Source: an uncultured Planctomycetia bacterium (GTDB lineage: Bacteria; Planctomycetota; UBA8108; UBA1146). From it: a stretch of DNA of 64,000 bases. Shown in pieces: positions 29,241 through 61,374 of the stretch. The position numbers and the translations under genes are program-made. Where the stretch lies: NCBI GenBank assembly GCA_964605665.1, contig CAZSDP010000001.1:203166-267165 (forward strand). The letters are read 5' to 3'. The number at the start of each line of letters is the position of its first letter. Position 1 is the first letter of the stretch. The notes beneath the pieces are model-generated. The model did not search any database and was not told where the DNA came from. It worked only from the letters and a program-made list of their open reading frames with translations.

Positions 29241-29702
29241 GGGGAAATCTCTCGACTCTCCCAACAGGTATGAATTGACAAAAATCGGGCGGGTCCCCCC
29301 TCCGCATCATCTCCACCCCAATGGCCCCACAGAAGCGTCTTCCACTCCGCTGCCCCCGCTACATCCCAGAAATGCTCGGGAAGCGACCGACTCGCGATGA
29401 GAATCTGGCAATCTATGCGACTGCCACTCTTCCTTGAAAGACTGCCGAAGCGTAGAATGTCCCTCTGCGGGAACGTCTCGCTCGCTGGGGAATACCGTCC
29501 TGTTCTCTTGCCAGTCCTGCTCGACCTCGCTGAGCCGCCCTTTGGCTGAGACCCCGCACTCGTACTCGTGAATTTGTAGAGTGCTACCAATCAACCTGGG
29601 TTCTCGAGTCATACGCCACGCAGCTCCGGGAGAGTCGCCAGTTTCGCGCTTCTGGGTGAAGTGGGAATCAACGATCGCTTCTACAGGTGGGGGAACCGAA
29701 CT

Positions 29703-30776
29703 ATGGTCCTACAGTTGATCAATAATTCGTTGAATCGACTCCTTGGGGTTTTTTCGACCGACATGGGTATCGACCTCGGAACAGCGAACACTCTGGTCTG
29801 TATTCGCGGCGAGGGAGTTGTGATTTCTGAGCCTTCGGTCGTGGCAGTCAAGGCAGGAACCAACCAAGTTCTACTTGGCGGTAAAGCGGTTGGCAGAGTC
29901 GCTAAAGAAATGATCGGCCGAACACCTGGTTCGATCGACTCGGTACGCCCTCTCAAAGATGGTGTGATCGCTGACTTTGAAGTGACCGAGGCCCTCCTCA
30001 AGTACTTCATTACTAAGGTGCATAAGCGAAAGAGATTCTTCAGTCCTCGCGTGGTGATCGCCGTTCCAAGTGGGATCACCGCAGTGGAAAAGCGTGCAGT
30101 CTACAATTCCGCTGAACGGGCCGGCGCTCGCAAGGTCTACCTCGTCGAAGAACCGCGCGCCGCAGGACTCGGTTCTGGCCTTGAGATTGAAGAGCCTATC
30201 GCAAGCATGGTGGTAGACATCGGAGGTGGCACGACTGAAATCGCCGTCATCTCTCTCGCTGATGTTGTCACATCTGTTTCCTTGCGAGTTGCTGGTGATG
30301 ATATGGATGAGGCGATCATCCAATACATGAAGAAGACCTATAACATTTTGCTCGGAGTTCTCACTGCAGAGCAAATCAAGATCGACATAGGCTCGGCCCA
30401 TCCTCTCGAGCAGGAACTTGAGCTCGAGGTGAAAGGGAGAGACCTTATCGTTGGCCTCCCCCGCTCGGTCCGAATCACTTCTGAAGAAATTCGTGAAGCA
30501 CTCGCCGAACCCGTAACAGCAATCATTGAAGGCATCAAAGAAACGCTCGAGAAAACCGATCCTGAACTCTCAGCGGACCTCGTTGAACGCGGACTGGTAT
30601 TGTGCGGAGGCGGAGTTCTGCTCCGTGGCCTAGACGAGCTGATCGCACGCGAAACCGGCCTCCCGGTGCGCATTGCCGAGGATCCATTAACGTGCGTCGC
30701 TCGAGGAACAGCCATCTTCCTCGAAAAGCTCGATCAATACTCGACCGTGCTGGATTCAATCGAGGACGACTTTTAG
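29703..30776 (+). CDS. mreB: Rod shape-determining actin homologue MreB
   Basis: 'GIDLGTANTLV', 'VIAVPSGITAVEKRAV', 'YLVEEPRAAGLG', 'VVDIGGGTTEIAVIS'. Confidence 0.9.
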   Translation: MVLQLINNSLNRLLGVFSTDMGIDLGTANTLVCIRGEGVVISEPSVVAVKAGTNQVLLGGKAVGRVAKEMIGRTPGSIDSVRPLKDGVIADFEVTEALLKYFITKVHKRKRFFSPRVVIAVPSGITAVEKRAVYNSAERAGARKVYLVEEPRAAGLGSGLEIEEPIASMVVDIGGGTTEIAVISLADVVTSVSLRVAGDDMDEAIIQYMKKTYNILLGVLTAEQIKIDIGSAHPLEQELELEVKGRDLIVGLPRSVRITSEEIREALAEPVTAIIEGIKETLEKTDPELSADLVERGLVLCGGGVLLRGLDELIARETGLPVRIAEDPLTCVARGTAIFLEKLDQYSTVLDSIEDDF

Positions 30777-30835
30777 TCCACGATGCAGTGGATTCACGAA
30801 CCACCATCGCCTGAGACTCATCGAGGACGATACAA

Positions 30836-31534
30836 ATGAAGCCTCGTCAGCGTGCGCAGTGGGCAGTGTTGGCGTGGTTGTTGATTATTCTTGTGGGCAC
30901 TGGCGCCCGCCTGATCAATTTCAGATCGGACGACGCCCAGCGAGACGAACAAGCGTGGGAGCTACTTCAAGAACACTTCAGTGACTCTTCTCGCCGCGCG
31001 GCCCAAAGCCAACTCGAGGAGCTGATCACAGTCTATGATCAAGGCCTCGATGGTTTTATCCCGATACCCGCCCGACTCTTCCCCACAAGTGACCTCTCAC
31101 CCCAAAGACAGTCTGGATTACTCAATCGCGGTCGAGAACACGGAATCAAAGTCGGTCAGGGAGTGATCGGTAGAAGGGGCGTTGTTGGGGCGATTGCTGA
31201 GGTTTCAAGGACGAGCAGTCGGATCATATTTTCCGACGATCCCGATTTCCGAGTGAGCTTCTCGATCCGAGCAAAGGGGCGCGGAGTTGCTGCTGGGGGC
31301 CCACGGAGGGGGCAGCTTCATCCGATACTACGCCTCGAATCACTTCAGTTTCAGGTAGGCGATCTACTTGTCACCAGTGGGACAGATGGGGTCTTTCCCC
31401 GCAGCCTTGTCGTTGGAACCGTCCGAACCGCGAGCTTACCGATAGAGTCGTGCAAGATATCACCTCCCCCAGACATCCATGAGCCACAAGAAGTTCTAGT
31501 ACTTGCTCTCCCCACCCTCCAGGAGGATAGATGA
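30836..31534 (+). CDS. mreC: Rod shape-determining protein MreC
   Basis: N-terminal TM, coiled coil, then β-domains ('GQGVIGRRGVVGAIAEV'). It sits between mreB and mreD. Confidence 0.75.
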   Translation: MKPRQRAQWAVLAWLLIILVGTGARLINFRSDDAQRDEQAWELLQEHFSDSSRRAAQSQLEELITVYDQGLDGFIPIPARLFPTSDLSPQRQSGLLNRGREHGIKVGQGVIGRRGVVGAIAEVSRTSSRIIFSDDPDFRVSFSIRAKGRGVAAGGPRRGQLHPILRLESLQFQVGDLLVTSGTDGVFPRSLVVGTVRTASLPIESCKISPPPDIHEPQEVLVLALPTLQEDR

Positions 31535-32022
31535 GGTCGATCCGCCCCTTCTATTGCATACTGGTACTCACCCTTGGGATGGCGATGCAATGGTCGCTGG
31601 CACCACTTCTTGTTGGTGGCCCCTGCACCGTGGACTTCACCCTACTGATCCTCATTTGGTTTGCTCTGATCGACCGCGTGGAACGGGTGACCTTGCTTTT
31701 GCTCGTGGTCATCGTCTTGCGAACCATCTACGGCGTCGCGACCCCGGTCGAAGCGGCACTACCCCTAATTTCTGGCCTGATTTGGACCAGATTTGCTCGA
31801 AGATTTGTCGATTCGCGGGACGACATACGCCGAATAGTGATCAGCTTGGGGGCGATCCTCATCGCAGGCCTACTGAACAGTATCTTGCTGAGCGAGTATT
31901 GGATCCAGGACATCGACCAGATGGTGGCTGGCGTCATCTACAGCTTGATCGCTGGGATCATGTTGTTCCCTATATTGGACGAGTTGATTCCCCTCTTGCG
32001 AAGCCCCCGATTTCCGATGTGA
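31531..32022 (+). CDS. mreD: Rod shape-determining protein MreD (polytopic membrane protein)
   Basis: 163 aa with 4–5 TM helices. Overlaps the mreC stop. Called from its position in the operon. Confidence 0.55.
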   Translation: MRSIRPFYCILVLTLGMAMQWSLAPLLVGGPCTVDFTLLILIWFALIDRVERVTLLLLVVIVLRTIYGVATPVEAALPLISGLIWTRFARRFVDSRDDIRRIVISLGAILIAGLLNSILLSEYWIQDIDQMVAGVIYSLIAGIMLFPILDELIPLLRSPRFPM

Positions 32023-32126
32023 CGTACTCCAGAGGGTTTTCTTTGACTATTCCCCTCTCACTATTCTCCAAGGTTCACCCCTGCGGTAACATTTCTCCAC
32101 CAAGTCACTGAGAGGATGCTATCGAG

Positions 32127-34271
32127 ATGCAAAGAAAGCGCATCACTATCCTTGTCCTACTCGTGATCTTGGGATTCTCCGCGGTTTCAGCCCGTCTCTA
32201 TTGGCTCCAAGCCCTCCAGTGGCGTGAATTTCATCTTCGAGCAGAAAATTTTCAGCGCCGCGTCCAAACAACTCCTGCTCCCCGGGGACGCATCCTCGAT
32301 CGATATGGGAAGGTGATCACTCAAGATGAACCGACTCATGAGATCGTCTACAACCTCAGCCAACTTGAACCTGTTCGCTGGCTATGCAGAAGAGTGCACC
32401 GGGTCATCGGAAAGTCTCCGAGCGGTCGTAATTTTCCATACGATGTCGACACTCTTTGGAACTCACTCGATGCGATACGAGCATCGGTACGCCCACAATT
32501 TGATCAGACGACACAGATCCCACTACAGATCTGGCTCTCTCGGCTACCCCTGGACTCTACACAGAGTCTCTCCAATGCCATTTCAGCGCGACCACGGGAC
32601 TTTCCAGGTCTCAAGGTGTTTCCCTCGAAGGGTGAAGTTTGGATCGATCCAAACGCCCTCTTCGCCGGAGAAATCGGAATCCGTTCTGTTGAACGCCGAC
32701 TCGAGCTCTCTCCTGGCTCCCTCTTCCAACAAGTTTGGCGAAGATACAAAAGCGTGAGCGATCCCGACCTGAGCTCCACGCGCAGGGAAGAGATTTACCG
32801 TTACTTAGAACACCACTTGGTTGGAAACATCACTGACCAACTCGCCGAGGACATTGTTACCAACCCGGAACTCTATCCTGGCCTGCGAGTCCGTGAAGTT
32901 CCGAGACGGTCATTTGTTGGACCTGCAGGTATCGCACGACTAATCGGTCGAGTCGGAGCACGAAGGCCTGACGATGAGCTACGGTGGAAGCAAGCCCAGG
33001 AACCGATCGTTGACCGGCTTCACTTTCGAACACTTAGCACTTTTCTTGCTCTACAAAAAGCCTCTCATCACTCTGAGGATCTCGTCGGACATGATGGAAT
33101 TGAACAACAGTTAGAAGACCACCTACGCGGTCGAAGCGGTGGCCAGCTGGTCATTCTCGATCACCGCCAAAATATGCGAGGTGAGCCGCTTGACGTCATC
33201 CCACCCACCCCTGGGCAGGATGTCGAGCTCACGCTCGATCTTGATCTCTGTCGGCAATTGCAATTGACGCTCGCCTCGAGAGATCCTCACGGTGCGTCTG
33301 CCCTGATCGCAAATGTTCAAACCGGCGAGATACTCGGCTGGTGTAGCTATCCAGCAGCGACTCCCGAAGTCTACCGCGACACTGGACAATATCGCCACTT
33401 GCAAGCACTCGGGCGGGGTCACTTCTTTGATCGCCCTGTCAGCTACCCACTCGAACCTGGATCGACTTTTAAGACCCTCGTTGCCCTCGCAGCCTTGGAA
33501 GAAGGCGTCGTCGATCCGACAGAGAAGATCACTTGCACCGGTGTCTACGATCCGGCAAACCCACAACACTTAAGATGCAATAATCACACTCCCTATCTCG
33601 ACTTGGATCTCCAAGAAGCACTTCTTCGATCTTGCAATGTTTACTTCTACAAAGTTGGTGGCGATCGCCTGGGGCTCGATAAACTCTCGTCATGGAGCGA
33701 CAAGTTTCAGTTTTGGAAACCAGTGAGTTGCGGGAGTGGTTTCGAACGCGTTGGAATCGGACCACGCTCTAGCCCGCACAGTGTTTCTATCGGACAAGCA
33801 TTCACGACAACCCCGATTCAAATGTTACGCCTCAGTGCGATGATCGCTCAAAGAGGACGAGCGCCGCAATTGACAGTGCTTCAAAGCGATGTCGGAAGAG
33901 TCGTAGAGGAGATTCCCCTTAGATCGAACACATGGAGTCAGGTGATTCGTGGAATGGAAAGAACTGTCCATGATCCCAACGGCACGGCGGCAAAGCCCCA
34001 CTATGGATTACAAGAATTCGATTGTGCAGTGAAAACCGGCTCTGCAGAGGTGCCGAAACAACAGATTCCTCCACAAGAGCGATTCCGTGAATGGAATCAC
34101 GCATGGCTGATCGGTTTCACCCCAGTGCAGAATCCCCTCTATGCATTTGTCATCGCCCTGGAACGTGTTGAGGGTCATGGGGGCGAAGAATGCGCCCCCA
34201 TCGTCACAGAAATCCTCAATTGGCTCTCTGAAAACAGGGCATTCGAAGGTAGGCGGGAAAGGCGACAGTGA
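32127..34271 (+). CDS. mrdA: Penicillin-binding protein 2 (elongasome transpeptidase)
   Basis: N-terminal TM and PBP dimerisation domain. 'STFK' active-site serine motif, with the SXN and KTG(S/T) regions downstream. Confidence 0.85.
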   Translation: MQRKRITILVLLVILGFSAVSARLYWLQALQWREFHLRAENFQRRVQTTPAPRGRILDRYGKVITQDEPTHEIVYNLSQLEPVRWLCRRVHRVIGKSPSGRNFPYDVDTLWNSLDAIRASVRPQFDQTTQIPLQIWLSRLPLDSTQSLSNAISARPRDFPGLKVFPSKGEVWIDPNALFAGEIGIRSVERRLELSPGSLFQQVWRRYKSVSDPDLSSTRREEIYRYLEHHLVGNITDQLAEDIVTNPELYPGLRVREVPRRSFVGPAGIARLIGRVGARRPDDELRWKQAQEPIVDRLHFRTLSTFLALQKASHHSEDLVGHDGIEQQLEDHLRGRSGGQLVILDHRQNMRGEPLDVIPPTPGQDVELTLDLDLCRQLQLTLASRDPHGASALIANVQTGEILGWCSYPAATPEVYRDTGQYRHLQALGRGHFFDRPVSYPLEPGSTFKTLVALAALEEGVVDPTEKITCTGVYDPANPQHLRCNNHTPYLDLDLQEALLRSCNVYFYKVGGDRLGLDKLSSWSDKFQFWKPVSCGSGFERVGIGPRSSPHSVSIGQAFTTTPIQMLRLSAMIAQRGRAPQLTVLQSDVGRVVEEIPLRSNTWSQVIRGMERTVHDPNGTAAKPHYGLQEFDCAVKTGSAEVPKQQIPPQERFREWNHAWLIGFTPVQNPLYAFVIALERVEGHGGEECAPIVTEILNWLSENRAFEGRRERRQ

Positions 34272-35428
34272 TTTTATCCTCGAGCCAAAATAGTCCCTTT
34301 CTCCTCTTTGCGATGGGCCTCTTGATCTTACTCCTCCTAATCGGTGGAGTGATCTTCGTGCACTCCGCCTCCTCTGGACCTGAAGACTCATTTCCCAGTC
34401 CTTTGGCAAAGGCACATCTCCTACGAATATTTGTTGGCTGTGCCGTGTTCGCGGTATTCGCGTTTAGCGATTATCGAACTTGGGAACGGTGGGCACCACT
34501 CTTGTATTGGATGGGAATTGGCCTACTACTCTTCCTGCTCTTCATCAAAGTTACTGAGGGGGGGGTTGTCCGCTGGTTCAAGATTGGCGGTGTGAGCGTA
34601 CAACCGTCGGAATGGGCGAAACTATTTACGATTTTCTGGCTCGCAAAGATTTTTCACAGCAGTCAAATCCAACGCAGCGGCACCCCTATTCTTCACCCTC
34701 TTCTCGTAGTCCTCCTTCCCTTCCTCTTGATCGCGATCCAACCCGATTTAGGAACGGCTCTCGTGTTCGTACCGATCGCCCTTGCAATCCTCTGGGTCGG
34801 GGGTGCCTCTTTAAAACTGATGGGAGTCATGGGATTGGCCGGCCTCGTATCTGCTGCCGTTGGATATCTCTTTCTCTTACGTGACTACCAAAGAGACCGG
34901 TTGCTGGTTTATATCGGCCGTGCTGGTGAAGATGTAGCAACCGCCCAGAGTTATCACGTCACCCATTCGATGATTTCCATCGGCTCAGGCGGACCATCTG
35001 GAAAAGGTCTCTTTCTGGGGACACATAGTGATCTCGGTTATCTTCCGGAGGATCACAACGATTTTATCTTCGGAGTCATCGGCGAAGAATGGGGACTGAT
35101 AGGGACGCTGGCAACTGTTGCTATATTCATGAGTCTCTACCTCATCTGCCTGAGAGTTGCGTGGAACACCCGAGAACCCTTCGGACGTCTGGCAGTTGTC
35201 GGGATCACCGCCCAATTGGCGTTCCAAACGATGGTCAATTTGGGAATGACTGTCGGACTCGTTCCTGTAACCGGTTTGCCCTTACCACTGGTCAGCTATG
35301 GCGGAACCTCGATGTATATCGTGATGGCGGGTCTCGGATTCATTTTTTCCGTCGCACGACAGCCGGTCGCTAGCCTACACCCTGACGGTCTCCTCGCAGG
35401 AACCTCGTCACCTCAACATCGGCCGTAG
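34268..35428 (+). CDS. rodA: Peptidoglycan glycosyltransferase RodA (SEDS family)
   Basis: 10-TM SEDS protein ending 'GLVPVTGLPLPLVSYGGTSM'. Overlaps the mrdA stop. Confidence 0.85.
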   Translation: MILSSSQNSPFLLFAMGLLILLLLIGGVIFVHSASSGPEDSFPSPLAKAHLLRIFVGCAVFAVFAFSDYRTWERWAPLLYWMGIGLLLFLLFIKVTEGGVVRWFKIGGVSVQPSEWAKLFTIFWLAKIFHSSQIQRSGTPILHPLLVVLLPFLLIAIQPDLGTALVFVPIALAILWVGGASLKLMGVMGLAGLVSAAVGYLFLLRDYQRDRLLVYIGRAGEDVATAQSYHVTHSMISIGSGGPSGKGLFLGTHSDLGYLPEDHNDFIFGVIGEEWGLIGTLATVAIFMSLYLICLRVAWNTREPFGRLAVVGITAQLAFQTMVNLGMTVGLVPVTGLPLPLVSYGGTSMYIVMAGLGFIFSVARQPVASLHPDGLLAGTSSPQHRP

Positions 35429-40598: not shown

Positions 40599-43500
40599 AT
40601 GAAACAGATCCAACACGATTACCGATTTCTCAAACCCCTGGGATCGGGGGCGGAGGGAGAGGTTTGGTTAGCAGAAGATCTCCGAAGGGACCAACTTCTC
40701 GTCTCCTGGAAACGACTTTTCGACTCTTCAACAGATCGGAAAATCCCGTCCGAGTTTCGAACGTTGCAAGGGATCCAACACCCAGCACTCGCGACGGTTC
40801 TAGAGAGTGGATTACTTCCCGATGGAGCTGGTCGCTGGTTCACAAGCCCATTTTTTCCTGGTCAATCGATCGACAAATTGCCTCGTCCGATAGACCCCGC
40901 TCTCCTCGAGGGGATTATCCGACGGGCTGTCGAAGGGATTGCCGCGCTTCACCGCTCTGGTTACCGCCACGGAGACCTTAAACCGGCTCACTTGCTTTGG
41001 AATGGCCCCCGACCTCTCGATGTACAGTTGATCGACCTGGGGCATGCTGCGCTCCTCGATGATCCCTCTCCGATCAATGCGGGAACGCCCCCGTACGCAG
41101 CTCCCGAATTGTGGAGCTCTTCACCAAAGCCACGCAGAAACACAGATCTCTACGCCCTCGCGATGATTGCCCTCGAAGTACTCAGAGGAGCACCCGTTCA
41201 ACAAAGTGTTGCACTGAGTGAGTGGCGAGATTGGCACCAACATGGCAACCGCGAGAGTGCACTCTCAGGAATAACAGTGCAGATTCGTGGCGCATTTCAC
41301 GAAGTGATCCGTTCCTGTTTGCAGCCCGACCCAGACGACCGTCCGCTTGACGCGGAAGCGATCTTACAGCAACTGCAACCATTCGAACCGACGAAGGAAG
41401 ACTCAGCGGAACAACGGAGTCGTTTCGATGAACTTCCGTTGATCGGTCGGGATCATTGGTTGACCACAAAGTATCAGGAGCTCAACTCTCCCGACGGTCC
41501 AGCCGGATTCCTACTGCTTGGAGAGGCGCGATCAGGACGCACGCGCCTGGTTCGCGCACTTGCCGCTCGCGTCAAATCTCGCGGCGGAATTGCCGTCGAA
41601 GGGGCATCTTCCGATCCGATCCACCAACGCGCACTTTCCACTCTCTCTCAACAGGCCCCCTGTCGTCTCCTCTGGTTCGACAACGTCATGGAACATCACT
41701 TTGAATCGGTCATCCAGGGGTGGAAACGGGTACGTTCTCTCGCTGGCTCCTCCGAGACTCGGCTCATCGCCATCGTCGACCCCTCGGCAAGTTCCGCTGC
41801 TTTGGCTCATCTAAAGAGAAGACTTGCCGGCATCTCTGGTCCAGTAAAAAGTGAGTTCCTGGCGGGGCTCGACCGCACGAGCTTTCACGAGTTGTTTCAA
41901 TATACTCACCAAAGCAAGGGGCGATCCGCTCTCGCCCCAACTGAAATCGATGCTCTATGGAGAAGTAGCGGCGGATCTCCCGCCAGTCTTGCACCCGACC
42001 CACCTCGCCCACCCTCCTCAAGACACGCACAAAGCGTGCTCGGACCTCGCTTGGGAAGCTGGTTGGCGCACATTCCAACTTCGCTGCCTTGGCATGTGCT
42101 CAAAGAAGCCTCTGGCAATTTAGATGAAGAGCTCGAGGATCTGTTTCTTTCTTGCGGATCAGGTGGACCAACCCGAGTTGAGAGTCGAGGTGAAACTCGA
42201 GTTCTTCCTTGGCCAGCGATCTTCCCCGTTGATTCGTCGATTCGACACCTCGCTGAAACTTGGAGGGATCGTGACGCTCCCACCGGACGATGGGCAGCGC
42301 TCTACCTCGAGGCGATTTCCGGAATCGTGATCTCTTCCGAAGCTTGGAGAATTGAGGTCGAGTCAGCGCGGCTCCGCGAGGATCCAGTGTCCCTACTCTC
42401 TCTGGCTCAAATCGCCCCTCAACCCGAACTGAAACATTGGCTCGAGATCGAAGGACGAGCACTGAGCGGAGAAGCGCAGAGGGTGGTCGATGAGTTGCCC
42501 GATCACCCGAGTGAACTCAACTCAGAACAGAGCATGATTTGCTCCACGATTCTGCAAACGACGGCCGGTCCAGCGCGAGCACTTCCATACGCGCTGCATT
42601 CACTGGAACATGCAGACAAGAGCTCTGTCATGGCGAGAAAGATACACGCAGCCTGCATCGCCCATGAATCTGGGGACGGAAAACTCGTAGACTCCTTAGT
42701 TCGTGATCTCGACAATCGATCAGAATTGAGCCCCCATTCCCTTTTCGAACTCGGGTCACTGCACTTACGACGTGGCCGATTCGCCGAGGCTGAGCCTTGC
42801 TTAAGTCAAGCGTTGAAACGATCGCGAGGCGGCGTTTCACCTCCGATCGTTTTGAAGTGCATGTCAGCACTCGCAGGGCACGCTCGTCTCACTGGTGACC
42901 TGCAGACCGCCCTTCAACGGATTCAAGTCGCGCATCGATACGCATCCTTCTTGAAAGTCGAGGAGGAGAATCCGGGATTGGTGGGAAACCTCGGAGCCAT
43001 TCTTCACTCGCTCCGTCGGTCTGACGAAGCCCTCCTTGCCTATCTGCGTGCCAATCAACTGGTGAAACGACGACCCGACCCAAATCTTGAAGTCCATCTG
43101 CAACTTGGGCTCGGTACAGTTCTGCGAGATCGTGGATCTCTGTTTGAAGCTTATCGCGCTCTGCGACGCTCCGTTCGCCTGGCCCGCACCACCAAAATGG
43201 GGCCGATTCTTGCCGCTGCGCTCGGCAACACCGGCGACCTAGAGCTCCTCATGGGAAACCCTCGAGCTTCGGCAATCCACCGATCTGAACTCCTTGAGTT
43301 GGCGGAAAAGGTCGGTGATCCAGCGCTTCTCCGACAAGCGCGCATCGCACTCGCGGCGGCCTCTTTGCACCTCGGCCAATGGAATCGATCGAATACCCTT
43401 TTGGAAGCTGCTGAAGAAGCCAAAGGAGTCGGAGGCTTACGACTTGATTCTTGGAATCTCGTCGTTCGCGCAGAATGGCTAGACCTTCATGGCGACAGAC

Positions 43501-45473
43501 GAGCTGCACTCACTGCGGCTGCAGCCGCTCTGCGCACTGCGTTTAGGAGCGGGCGTTCCTACATGGCAGCGACATCACTCCGCTTGATCTCTCGACAGGT
43601 CGCTAAACTCGGCGATGTTCCCCGTGCAATTCGACTTCTATCACGGGGACTTGAACTCGCTCGTCAAGACCCATGTCCCCCTCTCGCACGAATCCCTCTG
43701 GAACTCGAGAAACTTCACTGGACCGAGTCGCTCAACGGCGAAAGACGAACCGACCTCCGACTGACCCTCGCTAGGAACGCCAGGCAACACGGCTTACTGG
43801 AAGAATTCCTCGTCGCAACAGCACCGATATCAGACCTGCTTCCAGACGACCTAGCCGAAGCTCAAGGTGGTTTACGCGGCCGCCTCCTTCGCCGCTACGG
43901 TCATGCTGGGATCGACGCATTAGAAAAACGAAGAGGTTTCACGATCGCAGCAAGAGTAGCGACCACCCGCATGGAACTCCAAGTGAGCAGCTCCACGATC
44001 GAGGACTCCCCTGAAGAACCCTCACTTGAATTGCCCGAACGGCTTCAGAATCTATCGACCAATCTAGGGGCCGATGGCGCCTTGGCGTTGTCACGTCCGA
44101 TCAGAGCCTGGAGGCATGTCTGTAAGGTCGGCAATATCCAGTCGCCGGAAGCCTCCGATCTGCCGACGACCACAACTCTCTGGCCTGGCTCGACGTGGTC
44201 GCTGTGGATCCCGATACACTCCTCAACCCCTTGCGCCCTATGGTTGCAGGGAAGTGGTCAAGCTCCCGATATCGAATCGCTCGATCTGCGCGGTTGGAAT
44301 GAGACGATCACAGTTCATAGGTTGAAAAGTAATGAAGAGCGGCTCAAGAAGCTCGTCAAGCAACTACGCAGCGATCTCCAAGATTCTCGAGAAGAGAAGA
44401 TATCAGAGCGAGCCCGCCTAGAAACCCAACTGCTGACTCAACGGCTCGAGGTGACTCAAGATGGAGAGAGCCCCTCGGAGAACTCCATTTGGATCTCGGA
44501 ATCCCCCGCGATGAAAGCTCTTGAAGGACTCCTACCTCAGTGGGCGAAGAGTCAGCTACCGATTCTACTTTGGGGAGAAAGTGGAGTCGGTAAAAGCGCT
44601 CTTCTCTCGCGACTCTCACGCCTCTCTGGAGAATCTCCGATCACTGAAAACTGCGCAGCATTGCCCGAGCCTCTTCTCGAAGCTGAACTCTTCGGATACG
44701 TACCTGGAGCCTTTACCGGGGCAGAACAGGAACACAGCGGTCTCTTCGAGCGCGCTGCTGGAAACTCGCTGATTCTCGATCACCTCGATGAACTTCCCCT
44801 CAACCTACAGGCAAAGCTGTTGCGGGTCTTAGACTCAGGTAAGTTCCGACCTCTTGGCGCAGAAGAGGATCGGCAAGTTCAGTTTCGATTGATCGCCACC
44901 CTCAGGGATGATCCGCAAACCCTGATCGAACAGAATCGTCTGCGCCTCGATCTGTACTATCGACTTCAAGGTATCGAAGGGCATGTCCCTCCTCTTCGCC
45001 GCCGCAGGGAAGAGATCGGCCCTCTTTTGGAAGCGTATCTGAGTGAGGCTGCTCGAATTCAGGTCCGGCCACAGCCAACGATCCACCCACAGGCACTTTC
45101 TATCCTTGAGGCTGCAGACTGGCCTGGGAATGTCAGAGAATTGGTGAATGCCACACAACGCTGGCTGATCCAATCGGTCGATACCCTTCGCCCTGAGGAC
45201 CTAGACCGGGAATTCGTGCAGACTCCTGCAGTGGGTGATCCGTCTGGAAACACCGCATTCACAGAGAGAAAGGACGCAGCATCAACGACCGTCGCCACCT
45301 GGTCGGGAGAGGACTGGCGAACAGAGACGGAGAGATTCCACCGCGGTCTTCTTCGGGCCGCTCTCGATCGCTTCGCTGGGAATCAAACTCAGACCGCTCA
45401 AGCTCTCGGAATCAGTAGAAGACACCTGCAAAATCTGCTCAACAAACTTGATCTCAGGGAGCAAGAGGAATGA
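40599..45473 (+). CDS. Giant fusion protein: Ser/Thr protein kinase – degenerate STAND/AAA_16 NTPase – TPR array – σ54-interaction AAA+ domain – Fis-type HTH
   Basis: Kinase: Gly loop 'GSGAEGEV', 'VSWK', catalytic loop 'YRHGDLKPAHLLW', 'DLG', 'PPYAAPE'. STAND-like: 'LLGEARSGRT'. C-terminal enhancer-binding module: Walker A 'GESGVGKS', 'GAFTGA', 'LDLYYRL…PPLRRRREEI', HTH 'QTAQALGISRRHLQNLLNKL'. Confidence 0.8.
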   Translation: MKQIQHDYRFLKPLGSGAEGEVWLAEDLRRDQLLVSWKRLFDSSTDRKIPSEFRTLQGIQHPALATVLESGLLPDGAGRWFTSPFFPGQSIDKLPRPIDPALLEGIIRRAVEGIAALHRSGYRHGDLKPAHLLWNGPRPLDVQLIDLGHAALLDDPSPINAGTPPYAAPELWSSSPKPRRNTDLYALAMIALEVLRGAPVQQSVALSEWRDWHQHGNRESALSGITVQIRGAFHEVIRSCLQPDPDDRPLDAEAILQQLQPFEPTKEDSAEQRSRFDELPLIGRDHWLTTKYQELNSPDGPAGFLLLGEARSGRTRLVRALAARVKSRGGIAVEGASSDPIHQRALSTLSQQAPCRLLWFDNVMEHHFESVIQGWKRVRSLAGSSETRLIAIVDPSASSAALAHLKRRLAGISGPVKSEFLAGLDRTSFHELFQYTHQSKGRSALAPTEIDALWRSSGGSPASLAPDPPRPPSSRHAQSVLGPRLGSWLAHIPTSLPWHVLKEASGNLDEELEDLFLSCGSGGPTRVESRGETRVLPWPAIFPVDSSIRHLAETWRDRDAPTGRWAALYLEAISGIVISSEAWRIEVESARLREDPVSLLSLAQIAPQPELKHWLEIEGRALSGEAQRVVDELPDHPSELNSEQSMICSTILQTTAGPARALPYALHSLEHADKSSVMARKIHAACIAHESGDGKLVDSLVRDLDNRSELSPHSLFELGSLHLRRGRFAEAEPCLSQALKRSRGGVSPPIVLKCMSALAGHARLTGDLQTALQRIQVAHRYASFLKVEEENPGLVGNLGAILHSLRRSDEALLAYLRANQLVKRRPDPNLEVHLQLGLGTVLRDRGSLFEAYRALRRSVRLARTTKMGPILAAALGNTGDLELLMGNPRASAIHRSELLELAEKVGDPALLRQARIALAAASLHLGQWNRSNTLLEAAEEAKGVGGLRLDSWNLVVRAEWLDLHGDRRAALTAAAAALRTAFRSGRSYMAATSLRLISRQVAKLGDVPRAIRLLSRGLELARQDPCPPLARIPLELEKLHWTESLNGERRTDLRLTLARNARQHGLLEEFLVATAPISDLLPDDLAEAQGGLRGRLLRRYGHAGIDALEKRRGFTIAARVATTRMELQVSSSTIEDSPEEPSLELPERLQNLSTNLGADGALALSRPIRAWRHVCKVGNIQSPEASDLPTTTTLWPGSTWSLWIPIHSSTPCALWLQGSGQAPDIESLDLRGWNETITVHRLKSNEERLKKLVKQLRSDLQDSREEKISERARLETQLLTQRLEVTQDGESPSENSIWISESPAMKALEGLLPQWAKSQLPILLWGESGVGKSALLSRLSRLSGESPITENCAALPEPLLEAELFGYVPGAFTGAEQEHSGLFERAAGNSLILDHLDELPLNLQAKLLRVLDSGKFRPLGAEEDRQVQFRLIATLRDDPQTLIEQNRLRLDLYYRLQGIEGHVPPLRRRREEIGPLLEAYLSEAARIQVRPQPTIHPQALSILEAADWPGNVRELVNATQRWLIQSVDTLRPEDLDREFVQTPAVGDPSGNTAFTERKDAASTTVATWSGEDWRTETERFHRGLLRAALDRFAGNQTQTAQALGISRRHLQNLLNKLDLREQEE

Positions 45474-46200: not shown

Positions 46201-47427
46201 ATGGCTCAGCCACTCGATTGCCAAAGTCAACCCACTCCAAAATCTCCACGACGCTGGTACCCAAAGAGCTTTGCCCCGCTCGCCGCACTTCTGATTCTTC
46301 TCTCAGCCACCGCGAAGATCGAAGCAAATCACTTTGTTCGTGGTGACGTGAATTTTGATGGATTTGTCACCATCGCTGATGCTTCTCGATTGATCAGAGC
46401 AACCATCCTCGGGGACACCACCATTCAGTTTGCTTGCTCAGATAGTGCGGATGTCGATGACAACGGGATTGTCGAGTTTCTTGATGCGGTTCAGCTGATC
46501 ACATTTCTTTTTGGCGCCGACGGAGCAGGAGCACTTCCACATCCTTATCCTCAACCGGGGGAGGACCAAACCACGGATAGCTTGCCAAATTGCACGGGGG
46601 TCCATACGCCCTGCGTCGGCTCGAATTGTCCAAATGGGTCAGAGATCCCCCACATCTTCTTCTTGAGCCAAGAATCGGATAACCCCCTCGAACTGATGTT
46701 GGGCGCTGGCGGGCCAACCACAGCGATACCGATTCGGATGACCTCGATCGACCCGGTGGAGGGATTCACTCTCAGCATGATCTTTGATCCCCAGCAGATC
46801 GCCTCGATAGATATCGACTTTGAGGGGGGGGTCGCAGCGGAATACAACGCGGATCTCCGAATCTCCCATGTCAGCTCCGCGCATCCTGGCCATGTCTATG
46901 CCTACGTCGTCATGGAAATGTTCCCCCCTTTCACCGAGGAGGCGATCCCCGCCGGATTCGAACTTCTTTTGGGCCACCTGCTCGTCGAAGTTCAAGAGTC
47001 TGTCCCTGTTGGCGCTACTGTTGAAATCGGATTTGAGACTCTCCCACCCGTCGGTCAAGAACCACCGATGCGAAACGAGGTTGTTCAAGGAGGAGGATTC
47101 GGCATTCGCTACCCGATCACCCACACCAGATCATTCTTGGTCGAGCACCCTCATAACCTCTTCATTCGCGGTGACGTTAATCGGGATGGCTACGTCAACA
47201 TTGGAGATGCGATCCCACTACTACAGTTCTTGTTCCTCAACCTTCAGGATGCTCCTCTCTGCTTTGACGCTTGCGATGTCAATGACTCAGGTTCGATCGA
47301 CTTGGGAGACTCCATCACGCTGCTGATGACCCTCTTCCAGCCCCAGCTTGGAATCCAACCTGCTGCCCCATTCCCATATCCATCAGTCGACCCGACCACC
47401 GATTCACTACCCTGCGAGAATTTCTAG
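46201..47427 (+). CDS. Secreted protein with two dockerin-type Ca-binding repeat pairs flanking a β-rich middle domain
   Basis: Signal-like 'LAALLILLSATAKIEA'. Dockerin repeats 'GDVNFDGFVTIAD…DVDDNGIVEFLD' and 'GDVNRDGYVNIGD…DVNDSGSIDLGD'. Each is followed by a 'PFPYP…DPTTDSLP(N)C' tail. The ORF track start at 46183 is an alternative. Confidence 0.6.
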   Translation: MAQPLDCQSQPTPKSPRRWYPKSFAPLAALLILLSATAKIEANHFVRGDVNFDGFVTIADASRLIRATILGDTTIQFACSDSADVDDNGIVEFLDAVQLITFLFGADGAGALPHPYPQPGEDQTTDSLPNCTGVHTPCVGSNCPNGSEIPHIFFLSQESDNPLELMLGAGGPTTAIPIRMTSIDPVEGFTLSMIFDPQQIASIDIDFEGGVAAEYNADLRISHVSSAHPGHVYAYVVMEMFPPFTEEAIPAGFELLLGHLLVEVQESVPVGATVEIGFETLPPVGQEPPMRNEVVQGGGFGIRYPITHTRSFLVEHPHNLFIRGDVNRDGYVNIGDAIPLLQFLFLNLQDAPLCFDACDVNDSGSIDLGDSITLLMTLFQPQLGIQPAAPFPYPSVDPTTDSLPCENF

Positions 47428-48131: not shown

Positions 48132-48149
48132 AAGCACGCGAGGTGCCAA
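48132..48149 (-). promoter_or_regulatory. σ54-type −24/−12 promoter-like element (minus strand: tTGGCACctcgcgTGCTt)
   Basis: GG and GC dinucleotides are separated by exactly 10 nt. TGGCAC is exact; the −12 region reads GTGCT against consensus TTGCW. Two GC palindromes (GGGGGACCCCC at ~48191–48201; GGAGGACCTCC at ~48344–48354) lie upstream in the minus-strand sense and could be activator sites. Confidence 0.3.
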
Positions 48150-48674: not shown

Positions 48675-49061
48675 TCAGGGCGCACTCGACTCAAGGCGCT
48701 TCTTGCACTCGATACAGTGGGTAGCAAAGGGAATCGCCTCCAAGCGCGCATCACCAATCGGACCTTCACACTCTTCGCAGGTGGTATATGTTCCATCGTC
48801 GATGCGGTGGATCGCTCGCTGGATTTGCTCCAAAGTTGCCCCGCTAGTCCGAAATTGTTCAAAAACAACGGCATCGGCACTGGTATCGCCAGCGAGGTCC
48901 TCAAGATCCGCGATGTGATGACGATCTTCTTGTGCACTCAGGGAGTCGAGCCCTGTCTCGACGTCTTCACTCAAGAGCCGAAGCTGATCAACGAGGCGTT
49001 CTCTGACCTTTTGCAGGTGATCTTCCATCTTGCAGTCTCCCGATAAGGGGCAGTCTCCCAC
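48675..49061 (-). CDS. DksA/TraR-family C4 zinc-finger protein
   Basis: N-terminal coiled coil plus 'CEECEGPIGDARLEAIPFATHCIECK' (CxxC-N17-CxxC). Confidence 0.75.
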   Translation of the reverse strand: MGDCPLSGDCKMEDHLQKVRERLVDQLRLLSEDVETGLDSLSAQEDRHHIADLEDLAGDTSADAVVFEQFRTSGATLEQIQRAIHRIDDGTYTTCEECEGPIGDARLEAIPFATHCIECKKRLESSAP

Positions 49062-49331: not shown

Positions 49332-50693
49332 TTACGGACAGACTGTCGAGGTCAAACAACCAACGCCATCCGCATCCCCACTCGGATCGGGTCCGCAATC
49401 GGGGAAGGGCGCCGCAGGCTCGGGGCCCATCGTGAACAAGTAATTCAAAAGCGTAATCGGATCGGACAGATCCACCCCGCCGCTATCATTGACATCGGCA
49501 GTGTCCAAACATGCGGGCTCAGGCCCCATGGTGAACAGGTAATTTAAGAGGAAGATGGGATCGGACAGATCGATCGTCAAAGATCCGTTGACGTCACCTC
49601 GTACAAAGACTCCTCCGGTGACCCCCGATTCAATTTCAAAAGAGCCGTCGATCACGATCGGTAGAACGCTTGACTCTCCAATACTGATGGCGATCGCCAC
49701 TGGCGGTGCAGGAGCGGGAGGAGAGAGATCGGAAGTGAACGACAAAGGAGTCAAACCGACTGTCGCTGTGGCCGAAACGTCATAGGACGTGACGATAATC
49801 TCGTGCTCAACTCCGACCGGCAAAACGCTGACGGAGCCGCCAGCCATCGGAGACATGATTGCTCCAACCGTAATACCAGTCCCGCCGCTCGGAGCGAGAT
49901 CAGCAAAGAAGAATCCAGCTCCCGCGCCTCCATTGAGCGCTTGCACAGCGGCACCCTGATCCACAGATGTCGCCGTCAGTGAAGAACCATCGTGCAAAAC
50001 GCCCAGACTAAAGCCGTGAACGTCGAGCGAGTTCGTCATCAGTAACGGTACGCTCGCAACTTCCCCTTGGGGCACCGCCGCAATCGGGGCAAATGAAAGC
50101 TCAAATGGAACCACGTCGATATCGATGATGGCGTCTTCTATCGTTGGGAAGAGGCTCGACCCCGAAAGCGGGCCCGCCCCGGGAACGACAACAGTCTGGG
50201 GTGCGGGCTGTCCCGGAATACCAGCATTGTCGCAATAGCTAATTGTCGCGGTGGTTCCGTTTGGGCCGACCAAGGCGTAATCGATATTGACGACCTCATA
50301 GTCCAAGCCTGGGGGCAACTGCGCACAAGATACGAAACAAATGATCACACCTTGGCTCACCCCTCCGGCGTCAGTGTCATCTCCGCCGTAGAAGTTGATC
50401 TCATTGAAATCAACCGGGCTTCCATTCTTGGCGACTTCGCAAGTCGCGCCGGTCGTCGCGCTGATCGGCTGTACCAGGTTGAAGTCATGACAGACTCCGA
50501 GTGACCACCCACCCAGCGGGTCAGCCCCGTCGAGAACATCGAGGAGCGCAACCAGGCTGATTTCCTCACCAGAGGAACCGCTCAATCCCTGGGGAAACCT
50601 CAAGGTGTAGTTTTCACCTTGGGCCAACGCCTGCGAGGGTAAAAGGAGGGAAAGGCAGATGAGCAGTAGTGAAGCTCCGATAATGCGACACAT
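49332..50693 (-). CDS. Secreted β-rich protein with a C-terminal dockerin-type repeat pair (paralogue of 46201..47427)
   Basis: Signal peptide 'MCRIIGASLLLICLSLLLPSQALAQ'. Internal duplicated 'GxSLGVxHD' domains. C-terminal 'RGDVNGSLTIDLSDPIFLLNYLF…DVNDSGGVDLSDPITLLNYLF' then 'PAAPFPDCGPDP'. Confidence 0.6.
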   Translation of the reverse strand: MCRIIGASLLLICLSLLLPSQALAQGENYTLRFPQGLSGSSGEEISLVALLDVLDGADPLGGWSLGVCHDFNLVQPISATTGATCEVAKNGSPVDFNEINFYGGDDTDAGGVSQGVIICFVSCAQLPPGLDYEVVNIDYALVGPNGTTATISYCDNAGIPGQPAPQTVVVPGAGPLSGSSLFPTIEDAIIDIDVVPFELSFAPIAAVPQGEVASVPLLMTNSLDVHGFSLGVLHDGSSLTATSVDQGAAVQALNGGAGAGFFFADLAPSGGTGITVGAIMSPMAGGSVSVLPVGVEHEIIVTSYDVSATATVGLTPLSFTSDLSPPAPAPPVAIAISIGESSVLPIVIDGSFEIESGVTGGVFVRGDVNGSLTIDLSDPIFLLNYLFTMGPEPACLDTADVNDSGGVDLSDPITLLNYLFTMGPEPAAPFPDCGPDPSGDADGVGCLTSTVCP

Positions 50694-50842
50694 TCCAATT
50701 CCTCGTTTCTCTTCAGCTGTAGAGGAGGATCGAGTCGATCTCTCCAGCCCCTCAGCTCTCAGATGCTTGAACTCTCCAGAATTAGAGGTCCTCAAGTGAT
50801 TTCAAACTCCGAAATTGGGTCCGAGCGTGACCCAAGCGGCCA

Positions 50843-51080: not shown

Positions 51081-51096
51081 AGGCCCCTCCCTTGCC
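51081..51096 (+). promoter_or_regulatory. Weak σ54-like −24/−12 element (aGGCCCctcccTTGCc) ~45 nt upstream of the 51140 gene
   Basis: GG-N10-GC spacing is correct and TTGC is exact. The −24 region matches GGC only. Confidence 0.2.
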
Positions 51097-51139
51097 ACTG
51101 TGACTGGTGACGGGCGAAGTCCCGTAGGGAGGATGAAGA

Positions 51140-51826
51140 ATGAACTCGGAAGCCAACCAAAGCTCAGACAATCCTGGAGACCTCTCGACCCTTCAAAAGG
51201 TGAGCCGCGTTGAACCGGTCGGCGAGCTGAAGGAGAAGGGAATCTCGAGGGTTCAGCTGATCAGCCGCAGCCAATTTGAGACGGTCATCAGAGATGCGGT
51301 TGCGAGAGAGATTCTCAATATTCTCGACCAGGTCGAGCTCTCAGCTGAGGAACAAGAAGTCCTTACAGAGCGAGCAATCGCAAGACTCTCTGGAGAAGTT
51401 CCACAGATAGAAGCCAAACCATCAGAGTCGAACAGTTCCAACCCCTCAAGTGAAGAAGTGACTCCTTCCCCTTCGACAACTTCTGACTTCGACCCAACGG
51501 CGTTCAAGCAGAAGATCATCGAAGAAGTAGGCGGCTTAGTTTCTCAGAACTGGAGAGAAGAACTAAAGTCCGCTCAAGTCTCTCAATCAAACCATATCGG
51601 TCGACTCGAAGACCGCATCGATTCTCTTATGAATGCGCTCGACCAAATTGAAAAACTGATGGAGAAGTCCGATTCCACGCCTGCTGACGAGACTCACTCA
51701 ACTCAATCAAATGGCACGAGCAACGGAACTCTAGGTGGAATGAAAAATGAGCTCCTTGAGCAGCTCTTCGATGCGAACTTAGTACTCCGAGAATTGGAGG
51801 CTGGCGAAGACCTCGACGGAGAATAA
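51140..51826 (+). CDS. Acidic Ser/Glu-rich hypothetical protein (candidate partner of the downstream actin homologue)
   Basis: 228 aa. Low-complexity acidic 'SESNSSNPSSEEVTPSPSTTSDFDP' and a coiled-coil-like C-terminal half. SD 'gggagga' upstream. Confidence 0.45.
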   Translation: MNSEANQSSDNPGDLSTLQKVSRVEPVGELKEKGISRVQLISRSQFETVIRDAVAREILNILDQVELSAEEQEVLTERAIARLSGEVPQIEAKPSESNSSNPSSEEVTPSPSTTSDFDPTAFKQKIIEEVGGLVSQNWREELKSAQVSQSNHIGRLEDRIDSLMNALDQIEKLMEKSDSTPADETHSTQSNGTSNGTLGGMKNELLEQLFDANLVLRELEAGEDLDGE

Positions 51827-51972
51827 ACAGAAAGTGACGACTGAGAATACCTCTGGACTTCGGTTCACATGTTGGTGAATTGCTCCCCACCAACGTCTTA
51901 CCGAAAACGGACAATCCAAATTTGAAATTCAGGAGCCGCACCACAAGGTCGCGATAGAAGAAGAGGAGATCG

Positions 51973-53085
51973 ATGAGCACCAAGACCCAAGGAAATGGCA
52001 GCAAACCAGCTTCGAAAACTCGAAAGGCCTCTACGGCCAAAGCGAACACCAAGACGGAGATTCTTCATGTCGGAATCGACCTTGGTACCTCACGATCTGC
52101 TGTTGCGACCTCAACGGGAGTCAGAGACTTGATTGCGAGCGTTGTCGGCTGGCCAAAAGACACGATCTCCGCCAAGGCATTCGGAAAAGGAACCCAATTT
52201 GGTGGTGACGTCCTGAAAAACCGGCTCGCACTCGATGTTTGCTGGCCACTCGCTGACGGAAATCTCATCTTCACCGACCTCGAAGGTAAAGAGCAAACCC
52301 GAGCACGTCGAGCAGCAGAAGAGCTGATGAAAGAGATCAAGCGGCTAGCCCAACCAGCTAAGAACGAATCGATCTATGCCGTGATCGGAGCCCCCGCTGA
52401 GGCCACTCGAGAGAACAAGCAGGCAATCATCGAAATAGCTCAAAAAGCCGGCATTGACGCGGTCATGGTCGTTTCCGAGCCATTTGCTGTGGCATACACT
52501 GTCGATGCCTTGATCGATTCAATCGTCATCGATATCGGAGCCGGAACGATCGATCTCTGCCGAATGTCAGGCACATTACCCACCGAGGAAGATCAGGTCA
52601 CCGTCTTCAAGGCTGGAAACTACATCGATCAAGAAATTGCAAATCGAGTCCGCGAAAAGTATGGAGACGCTCAGTTTTCCATCAACATGATTAAGCTAGC
52701 CAAGGAACGGTTCTCTTCCGTTACCCAAAACGCCCAAAGAGCTCTGGTGACCTTCCCCGTGGATGGTGTACCGACCGAGCTCGACATCACCAAAGAAGTC
52801 CGCGAGGCGGTAAATTTGATTGTCCCTGAGGTTGTTGAGGGAATTCGAAAGCTCGTCGCGACCTTTGATCCTGAGTTCCAAGAGCGAATTCGAAACCGGG
52901 TCTTCGTATCCGGAGGTGGATCACTGATCTACGGAATTCGCGAGGCGATCGAAATTGGAATGCAGGAGATTGGTGGAGGCAAAGTCAGCCTCGTCGATGA
53001 GCCAGTTTACGCCGGTGCTGACGGAGCGCTCAAACTTGCCCAAGAGATGCCTGCGAAGTTCTGGGCCAAACTCAAGAGCAACTAA
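51973..53085 (+). CDS. Actin-family ATPase, MamK-like (distinct from MreB) with a basic N-terminal tail
   Basis: 'ILHVGIDLGTSRSAV' (phosphate 1), 'SVVGWPKD', 'YAVIGAPAEATRENKQAIIEIAQKAGIDAVMVVSEPFAVAY', 'IVIDIGAGTIDLCRMSG' (phosphate 2), 'VFVSGGGS'. The order and spacing match, by recollection, MamK-type actins rather than MreB. N-terminal 'KPASKTRKASTAKANTK'. Confidence 0.65.
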   Translation: MSTKTQGNGSKPASKTRKASTAKANTKTEILHVGIDLGTSRSAVATSTGVRDLIASVVGWPKDTISAKAFGKGTQFGGDVLKNRLALDVCWPLADGNLIFTDLEGKEQTRARRAAEELMKEIKRLAQPAKNESIYAVIGAPAEATRENKQAIIEIAQKAGIDAVMVVSEPFAVAYTVDALIDSIVIDIGAGTIDLCRMSGTLPTEEDQVTVFKAGNYIDQEIANRVREKYGDAQFSINMIKLAKERFSSVTQNAQRALVTFPVDGVPTELDITKEVREAVNLIVPEVVEGIRKLVATFDPEFQERIRNRVFVSGGGSLIYGIREAIEIGMQEIGGGKVSLVDEPVYAGADGALKLAQEMPAKFWAKLKSN

Positions 53086-61010: not shown

Positions 61011-61374
61011 GTCTTGGTTCTTTCTCTCCCGGGCTGCGCGCAAATGGGTCCCACCCAAAGCAACCACGATCTCTACAGAGGAACGACTCGACTTCGCCGA
61101 CCGGTTCCTCAAAGATTGCCTCAGCGTGCGGTACCCCGCCTCGCCAAGTTCCCCGCAATCGGTGTGCCGCCGAAGCGGCGCATTTGTAAATCCCCGATGT
61201 CTTCCCCCTGAAACAGGACGCCGAAGCTCTCTCGAAGTAAGATATCGGCGTCGAAGGGGCTGAAAAAGCCCCAGATCTCGTTTTTGCATGTACTTCACAG
61301 AAAGGCCGATGGAGACTTCTAGAGTCTCCGCTTGGTGAATCTCGCCACCTGGCATCTCTGGAACCCCGGAAAAT

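Follow-up and report, generated by a model that had tools for sequence, protein, structure and literature searches.

A MamK-related actin of Planctomycetota, its conserved upstream partner gene and a predicted sigma-54 promoter

Understanding of a bacterial actin usually comes by way of its dedicated partners, for example ParR for ParM, MamJ and MamY for MamK, and RodZ for MreB. In the ParMRC system, it is the C-terminal helix of the adaptor that binds the actin. MamK-like actins are widespread in Planctomycetota that are not magnetotactic, and in these organisms the filament protein alone has been noted so far (as 'saltatorellin'), with a speculative role. Here we describe one such actin gene, together with the gene immediately upstream of it, in a 64,000-nt stretch of chromosome from an uncultured Planctomycetia bacterium (contig CAZSDP010000001.1 of assembly GCA_964605665.1, positions 203,166 to 267,165), hereafter called the window. 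The coordinates of the two open reading frames (ORFs) were confirmed as 51140..51826 for the upstream gene, whose 228-aa product we call the partner, and 51973..53085 for the 370-aa actin, both on the + strand. The locus most likely represents a chromosomal two-gene operon, and we consider it reasonably probable that this operon is controlled by sigma-54 and specifies a dynamic actin filament together with a dimeric adaptor or regulator.

Among characterized families, MamK is the closest to the window actin by sequence, by hidden Markov model (HMM) and by predicted fold. The two proteins have in common the equivalents of the catalytic Glu and Asp residues and a C-terminal ...MP..W..L motif, whereas the window actin belongs to a sister clade, scores just below the family cutoff, lies outside any magnetosome cluster and carries a longer disordered N-terminal tail. 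The known binders of MamK are MamJ, LimJ, MamY, McaA and McaB (PMC13170167). The type of actin found in the window is also already known. In the accessible passages of the preprint that describes it, saltatorellin is the MamK-like second actin of Saltatorellus ferox, and it forms filaments in two hosts, E. coli and a mamK mutant of Magnetospirillum (10.1101/817700); it is mentioned as well in PMC11032199, and NCBI applies the name 'MamK family actin-like protein' to some such sequences. As presented in those passages, saltatorellin shares with the window actin the status of a MamK-related second actin that exists beside MreB in a non-magnetotactic, Planctomycetota-affiliated lineage. Its published reverse primer encodes ...YWEQLK followed by a stop codon, a C-terminus that matches the consensus of the clade to which the window actin belongs and recurs in several clade members (the window protein itself ends in ...FWAKLKSN); the primer-derived N-terminus, MTDITTD, does not occur among the relatives that we gathered. 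From the phylum, the MreB paralogy and the primer-derived C-terminus, we infer that saltatorellin is a member of this same clade. The accessible passages of the preprint contain no conserved upstream partner and no sigma-54 promoter. A literature search retrieved no description of the partner module, the modular heads or the sigma-54 promoter presented below, with most subscription journals lying beyond the reach of that search, such that a prior description is possible.

Another MamK relative from non-magnetotactic bacteria of the Planctomycetes-Verrucomicrobia-Chlamydiae (PVC) superphylum is BeeR, the three-stranded tubular actin of Verrucomicrobiota (PDB 8R2N), a hallmark of which is a disordered N-terminal domain (PMC11929497). 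The window actin likewise has a disordered N-terminal extension, but BeeR is far more distant from it than MamK is, as reflected by a score of 174.7 bits against the NCBIfam BeeR model (NF053558, cutoff 530). The ParM/ParR, AlfA/AlfB and Alp7A/Alp7R pairs follow the same logic as the window pair, with one actin-like filament protein and one small dedicated adaptor per operon, although no sequence relationship connects them to it. They also differ from the window pair in arrangement, as the putative adaptor of the window is encoded upstream rather than downstream of the actin on a chromosomal locus, without a detectable DNA-binding domain or a centromere.

By its sequence and predicted structure, the 370-aa protein is an actin-fold ATPase with intact nucleotide-binding and catalytic residues, and its predicted fold matches that of the MamK filament subunit. 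The original prediction, which was made from the DNA letters alone, had recognized the phosphate and adenosine motifs of actins in this protein, distinguished it from the MreB encoded elsewhere in the window and placed it in the MamK-like family, all of which agrees with what we found. The phosphate and adenosine motifs are present, with the SEPF and VDIGAGT sequences retained in the alignment with MamK, and the residues equivalent to MamK E143 and D161 are E169 and D187, the former being nearly invariant and the latter invariant within the clade. The highest-scoring NCBIfam model is that for MamK (NF040964), at 390.1 bits relative to a curated cutoff of 400, which was not reached. Scores with the NCBIfam/TIGRFAM models for MreB were 82 bits (cutoff 293) and 67 bits (cutoff 366), the ParM model gave 20.7 bits (cutoff 417), and Alp7A was likewise far under threshold. 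The Pfam MreB_Mbl model yielded 93 bits for this protein versus 465 bits for the genuine MreB of the window (29661..30776). The best solved relatives are the MamK structures 5LJW, 5JYG and 5LJV (E ~1e-76), followed by BeeR (4e-28) and MreB (7e-14). An AlphaFold2 model of the actin, based on 20 homologues, has a predicted local distance difference test score (pLDDT) of 85 and a predicted template modeling score (pTM) of 0.82. Its top match among PDB folds is the MamK filament 5LJV (template modeling score of 0.93 on the target, root-mean-square deviation of 2.4 Å, 38% identity), with BeeR second and MreB next. HMM, solved-structure, fold and tree comparisons all side with MamK-type actins rather than with MreB, FtsA/EutJ or Hsp70.

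At its N-terminus, the actin carries an extension rich in Lys, Thr and Ser (residues 1-29; 51973..52059, + strand) that is predicted to be disordered, with pLDDT values below 50 for residues 1-26. The Lys-rich tail that had originally been pointed out does exist, comprising 33 residues with a net charge of +6. Its charge is not conserved, however, and because values among relatives vary from -10 to +6, the Lys-rich character is a local, lineage-specific trait. Tail length is ~29-33 aa (median) in the Planctomycetota clade versus ~13 aa in magnetosome MamKs.

A search of a large database with the actin retrieved more than 4,000 relatives, of which those with named sources are almost all from Planctomycetota and some bear the NCBI name given above. 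When one genome per GTDB species was scanned, at least 585 genomes were found to encode a relative, and the 80 best came nearly all from metagenome-assembled genomes (MAGs) labeled Planctomycetota. The magnetosome clade was retrieved with a second query, the MamK of strain AMB-1 as reconstructed from a PDB alignment. All four fetched loci of MamKs close to AMB-1 MamK are magnetosome clusters with the arrangement mamH-I-E-(J-like)-K-...-M-N-O-P, and they include MAGs labeled Gammaproteobacteria, Mariprofundus and Nitrospinae. In a neighbor-joining tree of 46 sequences, rooted on the MreB of the window and assessed with 100 bootstrap replicates, the Planctomycetota actins form a monophyletic clade (100/100) that is sister to the magnetosome-cluster MamKs with a support of 56/100, and the window actin branches outside the latter. 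Identity between the two clades is ~40% (~38-40% for the window actin and MamK), and that to MreB is ~26%. Against the MamK model, clade mates of the window actin score 386-437 bits, straddling the cutoff, versus 498-549 bits for magnetosome MamKs. Because of this gap in score and the separate clade in the tree, the window actin is classified by sequence as MamK family in the broad sense, and not as a magnetosome MamK. Only four positions are fixed differently between the actins of the Planctomycetota clade and magnetosome MamKs. One of these is residue 262, which is always Pro in the sampled Planctomycetota actins and always Arg (MamK R236) in the magnetosome MamKs that were sampled.

The partner belongs to an unannotated family. 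It matches no significant family in Pfam or NCBIfam, and public records label its homologues 'hypothetical protein'; a weak match to TraP (20 bits, cutoff 135) was disregarded. A profile made from 12 close homologues identified 39 representative clusters among 1.84 billion proteins, and alignment of homologues reveals three conserved parts (residues ~27-85, 118-171 and 196-223). The first of these is a head that we designate 'type A' (residues 27-85; 51218..51394, + strand), which is defined by homologue conservation of the motif V.EL..+GI.+V+L.S....AV.+E.L and in which AlphaFold2 places helices at residues 43-64 and 69-83 with moderate confidence. A hypervariable acidic linker rich in Ser, Glu and Pro follows (residues 86-117; 51395..51490, + strand), whose length and composition vary among homologues and which is predicted to be disordered, with pLDDT values below 50 at residues 85-114. 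Beyond this linker, a long helix with a canonical heptad pattern (residues 119-178; 51494..51673, + strand; pLDDT ~80) is predicted to form a dimerizing coiled coil. Its hydrophobic positions (153, 156, 160, 163, 167, 170, 174 and 177) follow canonical 3-4 heptad spacing, and R159 is invariant (100% of 80 sequences). A second predicted disordered stretch separates the coiled coil from a terminal amphipathic helix, GGMKNELLEQLFDANLVLRELE (residues 195-220; 51722..51799, + strand; pLDDT ~80), which we propose might serve as an actin-binding peptide. This helix conforms to the consensus K-x2-LL-x2-[IL]F-x-AN-L-x-L. Among 80 distinct sequences, positions 205, 206, 209 and 210 are hydrophobic in every one, and conservation reaches 94% for K202, 96% for F210, 86% for A212, 100% for N213 and 91% for L216.

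The sequence comparisons identify the coiled coil and the terminal helix as the conserved trait of the family, with acidity and Ser/Glu richness being lineage-specific. The partner in the window has an isoelectric point of 4.39, with 19% Asp plus Glu and 18% Ser plus Thr, and the isoelectric points of its relatives range from 4.4 to 6.5. The original description of an acidic, Ser/Glu-rich protein of low complexity is apt with regard to acidity, and the low complexity is limited to the linker at residues ~86-117. In most family members, the stretch leading from the coiled coil to the terminal helix contains a conserved G..S.YR.VQGL motif, at the equivalent of window residues 186-192. In the sub-clade that includes the window, which also bears the sigma-54 element described below, a disordered stretch rich in Ser, Thr and Asn takes its place.

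The module composed of the coiled coil and the terminal helix accompanies the actin clade almost universally, being encoded on the same strand and immediately upstream of the actin whatever the neighborhood. Eight instances of this module were used to construct an HMM, with which the six reading frames of the window and of 89 loci of ~10 kb each (designated here by L numbers) were searched. Exactly one match was obtained in 84 of these 90 sources, or in 79 of 85 once redundant loci had been removed, and the module was not matched elsewhere in the ~10-kb loci. All matches are on the strand of the actin, and nearly all end 0-230 nt upstream of the actin start, a distance that is affected in places by a few uncertain start calls. 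An iterated HMM gave weak matches to the terminal helix at the same place in three of the six negative loci, and it did not detect the module ahead of mamK in the four magnetosome loci, where the best match had an E of 0.38 and was on the wrong strand. The pairing of the two genes that had been noticed in the window consequently holds in related genomes far beyond its close relatives. As far out as relatives with 58% actin identity, the order of partner and actin is kept inside a larger conserved block, whereas two distant loci (L007 and L008) have unrelated neighbors and retain the module upstream of the actin. When the ORFs of the loci were clustered, the actin and the partner emerged as the only universal neighbors.

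The original prediction had also drawn a loose comparison between the upstream protein and MamJ, but no relationship to MamJ was detected. The partner resembles MamJ in the position of its gene just 5′ of that for the actin, in its acidity, in a center of low complexity and in its presumed role as an adaptor. However, its sequence shows no similarity to what is encoded in the MamJ position upstream of Magnetospira mamK, the comparison on which the absence of MamJ homology rests; it also lacks tandem repeats, its acidity is not conserved among its homologues, and the conserved module is absent upstream of magnetosome mamK. It is unrelated to the other known MamK binders as well.

Whereas the C-terminal module is constant, the N-terminal heads appear to be exchangeable. 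In L007, the gene upstream of the actin (4884-5936) encodes a GGDEF-domain protein with the same coiled coil and terminal helix at its C-terminus. In L008, the upstream gene has the N-terminal motif of the window type, and the same C-terminal module follows after an apparent assembly frameshift. Pfam GGDEF matched 19 of 71 partners, and 17 GGDEF-type partners were recognized by sequence pattern (L007 and 16 further loci, for example L025, L034, L041, L058 and L071). Because the canonical GG[DE]EF motif is absent from all 17 of the latter, this type of head is probably non-catalytic and might function as a sensor or interaction domain. The remaining partners have heads of neither classified type.

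After the actin and the partner, the commonest neighbor is a gene for a ParA/MinD-like P-loop ATPase, which is absent from the window and present in 18 loci (L008, at 4271-5035, and L031, L032, L035, L039, L040, L042, L043, L054, L069, L070, L078, L080, L082, L084, L086, L087 and L088). In 17 of these, it immediately precedes the partner gene in the same orientation, giving the order ParA-like, partner, actin; the L087 match has the reverse orientation and overlaps the ORF called as the partner. All 18 of these loci have a type-A head, 17 as detected by regular expression and the frameshifted L008 by eye. The frame switch in L008, at ~5690-5700 (MAG GCA_016716265.1), could be an assembly error or a real frameshift. 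One MAG contains two cassettes (L048 and L089, on contigs CAZQHA010000137.1 and CAZQHA010000241.1), which might be paralogous copies or reflect a mixed bin.

A weak sigma-54-like match had been noted in front of the gene pair. This -24/-12 element, AGGCCCCTCCCTTGC (51081..51095, + strand), ends 44 nt before the ATG of the partner gene and has intact GG and GC cores at the exact 10-nt spacing, with two mismatches to TGGCAC-N5-TTGC. The case for its function as a promoter derives from comparison with orthologous loci. Each of the 14 non-redundant loci in the window's sub-clade carries an equivalent element with intact cores, exact spacing and no more than two mismatches (one mismatch in five loci). 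This element ends 38-67 nt before the partner start codon in 11 of these; in the remaining three, the start calls are uncertain. Across the 14 loci, the sequences flanking the element cannot be aligned, and such matches have a background density, determined from the opposite strand and from downstream sequence, of 1.4e-4 per nt per strand, or ~0.01-0.02 expected per 100 nt. Because every locus carries the positioned element within unalignable flanks and against this low background, the prediction of a sigma-54 promoter is well supported for the lineage of the window. In the other sub-clade, sigma-54-like matches are scattered and lack positional consistency. Two further sites in the window, both on the - strand, have intact GG and GC cores and a single mismatch. 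One of these (48134-48148) is located within a stretch of ~700 nt that has no obvious gene, and the other (61155-61169) is 186 nt inside the called start of a 453-aa ORF (59994-61355), the true start of which may be further downstream.

Each of the two genes has a ribosome-binding signature ahead of it. A Shine-Dalgarno-like GGGAGG (51127..51132, + strand) can be read 7 nt 5′ of the partner start codon, and AGGGAGGA or GGAAGGA strings occur similarly 5′ of the partner start codon in orthologous loci; a second such sequence, GAGGAG (51963..51968, + strand), is located 4 nt 5′ of the actin ATG. In agreement with transcription as one unit, the genes share a strand and no terminator-like site was found on the + strand between them. 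The intergenic gap (51827-51972) yielded no Rfam family, terminator or sigma-70-like promoter, and a sigma-70 promoter scan around the operon returned zero matches. This gap measures 146 nt, and the genes of relatives are mostly 0-126 nt apart or overlap.

The surrounding DNA is ordinary chromosome, with a G+C content of ~54% across the window. It encodes Opp/Dpp-type ATP-binding cassette transporters, Rho, GltX, riboflavin synthase, GDP-mannose dehydratase and PGK, and an mreB-mreC-pbp2-rodA block occupies 29661..35428. Rfam and tRNA scans of the whole window returned nothing. A candidate sigma-54 activator is encoded ~6 kb upstream of the operon (40599..45473, + strand). Judging from its domain content, this 1624-aa protein is a fusion of a Ser/Thr kinase, TPR, an AAA+ domain (Sigma54_activat) and a helix-turn-helix domain (HTH_8), and in L005 its syntenic counterpart is a 1597-aa protein with these domains. 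Proximity alone links it to the operon, and that it regulates the partner and actin genes is only a guess. Just upstream of this gene is one for a FapA-like protein (flagellar assembly protein A, beta-solenoid; 38880-40301, - strand). A gene for a DksA/TraR-type zinc-finger protein (48675-49061) is flanked by genes for two proteins (46183-47427, + strand, and 49332-50795, - strand) that look secreted and contain dockerin type I domains. Across the sub-clade, as seen in L001, L002, L004 and L006, there is synteny of a block consisting of dockerin protein, DksA, a ~430-aa protein, partner, actin and cysteine desulfurase.

On the basis of these observations, a mechanism can be proposed for the products of the operon. 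The actin would polymerize into dynamic, ATP-driven filaments like those of MamK and saltatorellin. The partner would dimerize through its coiled coil, and the two terminal helices of the dimer would dock on actin subunits, by analogy with the C-terminal helix of ParR on ParM. The exchangeable N-terminal head could then couple the filament to a cargo, site or signal, for which lineages may use a small type-A unit, as here, or a degenerate GGDEF domain, in some cases with a ParA/MinD-like ATPase gene next door. Transcription would require sigma-54 together with an enhancer-binding activator, for which the kinase-AAA+ fusion is a candidate, and the operon would consequently be switched on conditionally.

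Several points weigh against this scheme. The binding of the partner to the actin is argued by analogy, and the terminal amphipathic helix could instead be a membrane anchor. The overall confidence of the partner model is low (pLDDT 62, pTM 0.23), as is to be expected because the protein is elongated, and a fold search with this model returned only generic coiled coils, all with E >0.4. The actin falls 10 bits under the NCBIfam MamK cutoff. Viewed alone, the sigma-54 site of the window is uninformative, because 51 matches of equal quality were observed window-wide versus 44 +/- 7 expected, and rpoN is not located within the 64 kb. Finally, a separate promoter for the actin gene is conceivable because the 146-nt gap is wider than that in most relatives.

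Of the competing explanations, the one that best withstands the evidence, though we think it unlikely, is that the partner is a membrane tether whose terminal helix is a membrane-targeting sequence such as those of MinD, FtsA or MreB. The coiled-coil dimer would in that case anchor or pattern filaments on the cytoplasmic or an intracytoplasmic membrane and would contact the actin with a different part of the partner. The membrane systems of planctomycetes are elaborate, and the position of an amphipathic helix at the extreme C-terminus, after a flexible stretch, would suit such a role. Yet its conservation is residue-specific, as exemplified by the invariant N213 and by the frequencies given above for F210, A212 and K202, which differs from what mere amphipathicity would entail and argues against a helix that binds only lipids. 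Moreover, no other region of the partner is conserved across both types of head as a possible actin-binding site. The roles of adaptor and tether are not mutually exclusive.

We regard as more improbable still the explanation that the two genes are inherited and expressed together while their products make no contact, with the partner being, for instance, a signaling or regulatory protein that affects expression or a downstream process common to both. The GGDEF-type domain in some partners would fit such a function, but the GGDEF domains lack the catalytic motif. In addition, the genes are immediately adjacent on the same strand, often with overlapping stop and start codons, across a clade whose members are 46-73% identical to the window actin. 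This adjacency persists in unrelated neighborhoods, and linkage of this kind is typical of pairs that interact physically.

It is very unlikely that the locus specifies a DNA segregation system resembling ParMRC or AlfAB, in which the actin would push DNA molecules apart and the partner would be a centromere-binding adaptor. Type II partition loci do combine an actin and a small adaptor in one operon, and a ParA-like ATPase gene adjoins the pair in 18 related loci. However, the pair resides in a housekeeping region of the chromosome that is conserved among relatives, a search for iteron or centromere-like repeats at the locus was negative, and no DNA-binding domain was detected in the partner with Pfam or NCBIfam. 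The ParM and Alp7A models are far under their thresholds, as noted above, and a search of 72,556 plasmids recovered no homologue at E <1e-20.

Very unlikely, too, and the least likely of all in our estimation, is that the pair represents a true magnetosome MamK accompanied by an adaptor like MamJ, the rest of the cluster residing elsewhere in the genome: MamK is the closest characterized family, and magnetosome clusters are reported from some metagenome-derived Planctomycetota genomes (PMC7449369), but the 64 kb contain no mam genes, all four loci of MamKs close to AMB-1 MamK are embedded in mamH-I-E-K-M-O-P clusters, the Planctomycetota clade is distinct in both tree and MamK-model score, and the partner neither resembles the MamJ-position protein nor has its module upstream of real mamK genes. 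A scan of 46 ORFs of the window identified no magnetosome families, including the cation-efflux proteins MamB/M, the trypsin, PDZ and magnetochrome proteins MamE/O/P, MamI and LemA. This bears out the original statement that the window holds no other magnetosome genes, and the use of a MamK-like filament outside the magnetosome, as first suggested, fits both the housekeeping surroundings and the way in which the locus contrasts with true magnetosome clusters. The cellular role of the actin is very unlikely to be magnetosome alignment.

A broader interpretation, which we put forward only tentatively, is that the partner and the actin constitute a phylum-wide and hitherto unrecognized cytoskeletal module of Planctomycetota, in which the terminal helix would be a dedicated actin-binding peptide and exchangeable heads would plug the filament into different signals or cargos. 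Were this the case, bacteria that lack FtsZ, are rich in membranes and sometimes shift their shape would gain a regulated actin for division, budding, endomembrane organization or motility. An actin with a dedicated adaptor is unsurprising in principle, and the pair would be a further case in an emerging theme of bacterial actin-binding proteins. Nevertheless, it offers a concrete handle on planctomycete cell biology. A partner that accompanies the actin across hundreds of species provides experimental access in the form of a conserved terminal helix, swappable heads and a predicted sigma-54 switch, and these make the function of the second planctomycete actin directly testable.

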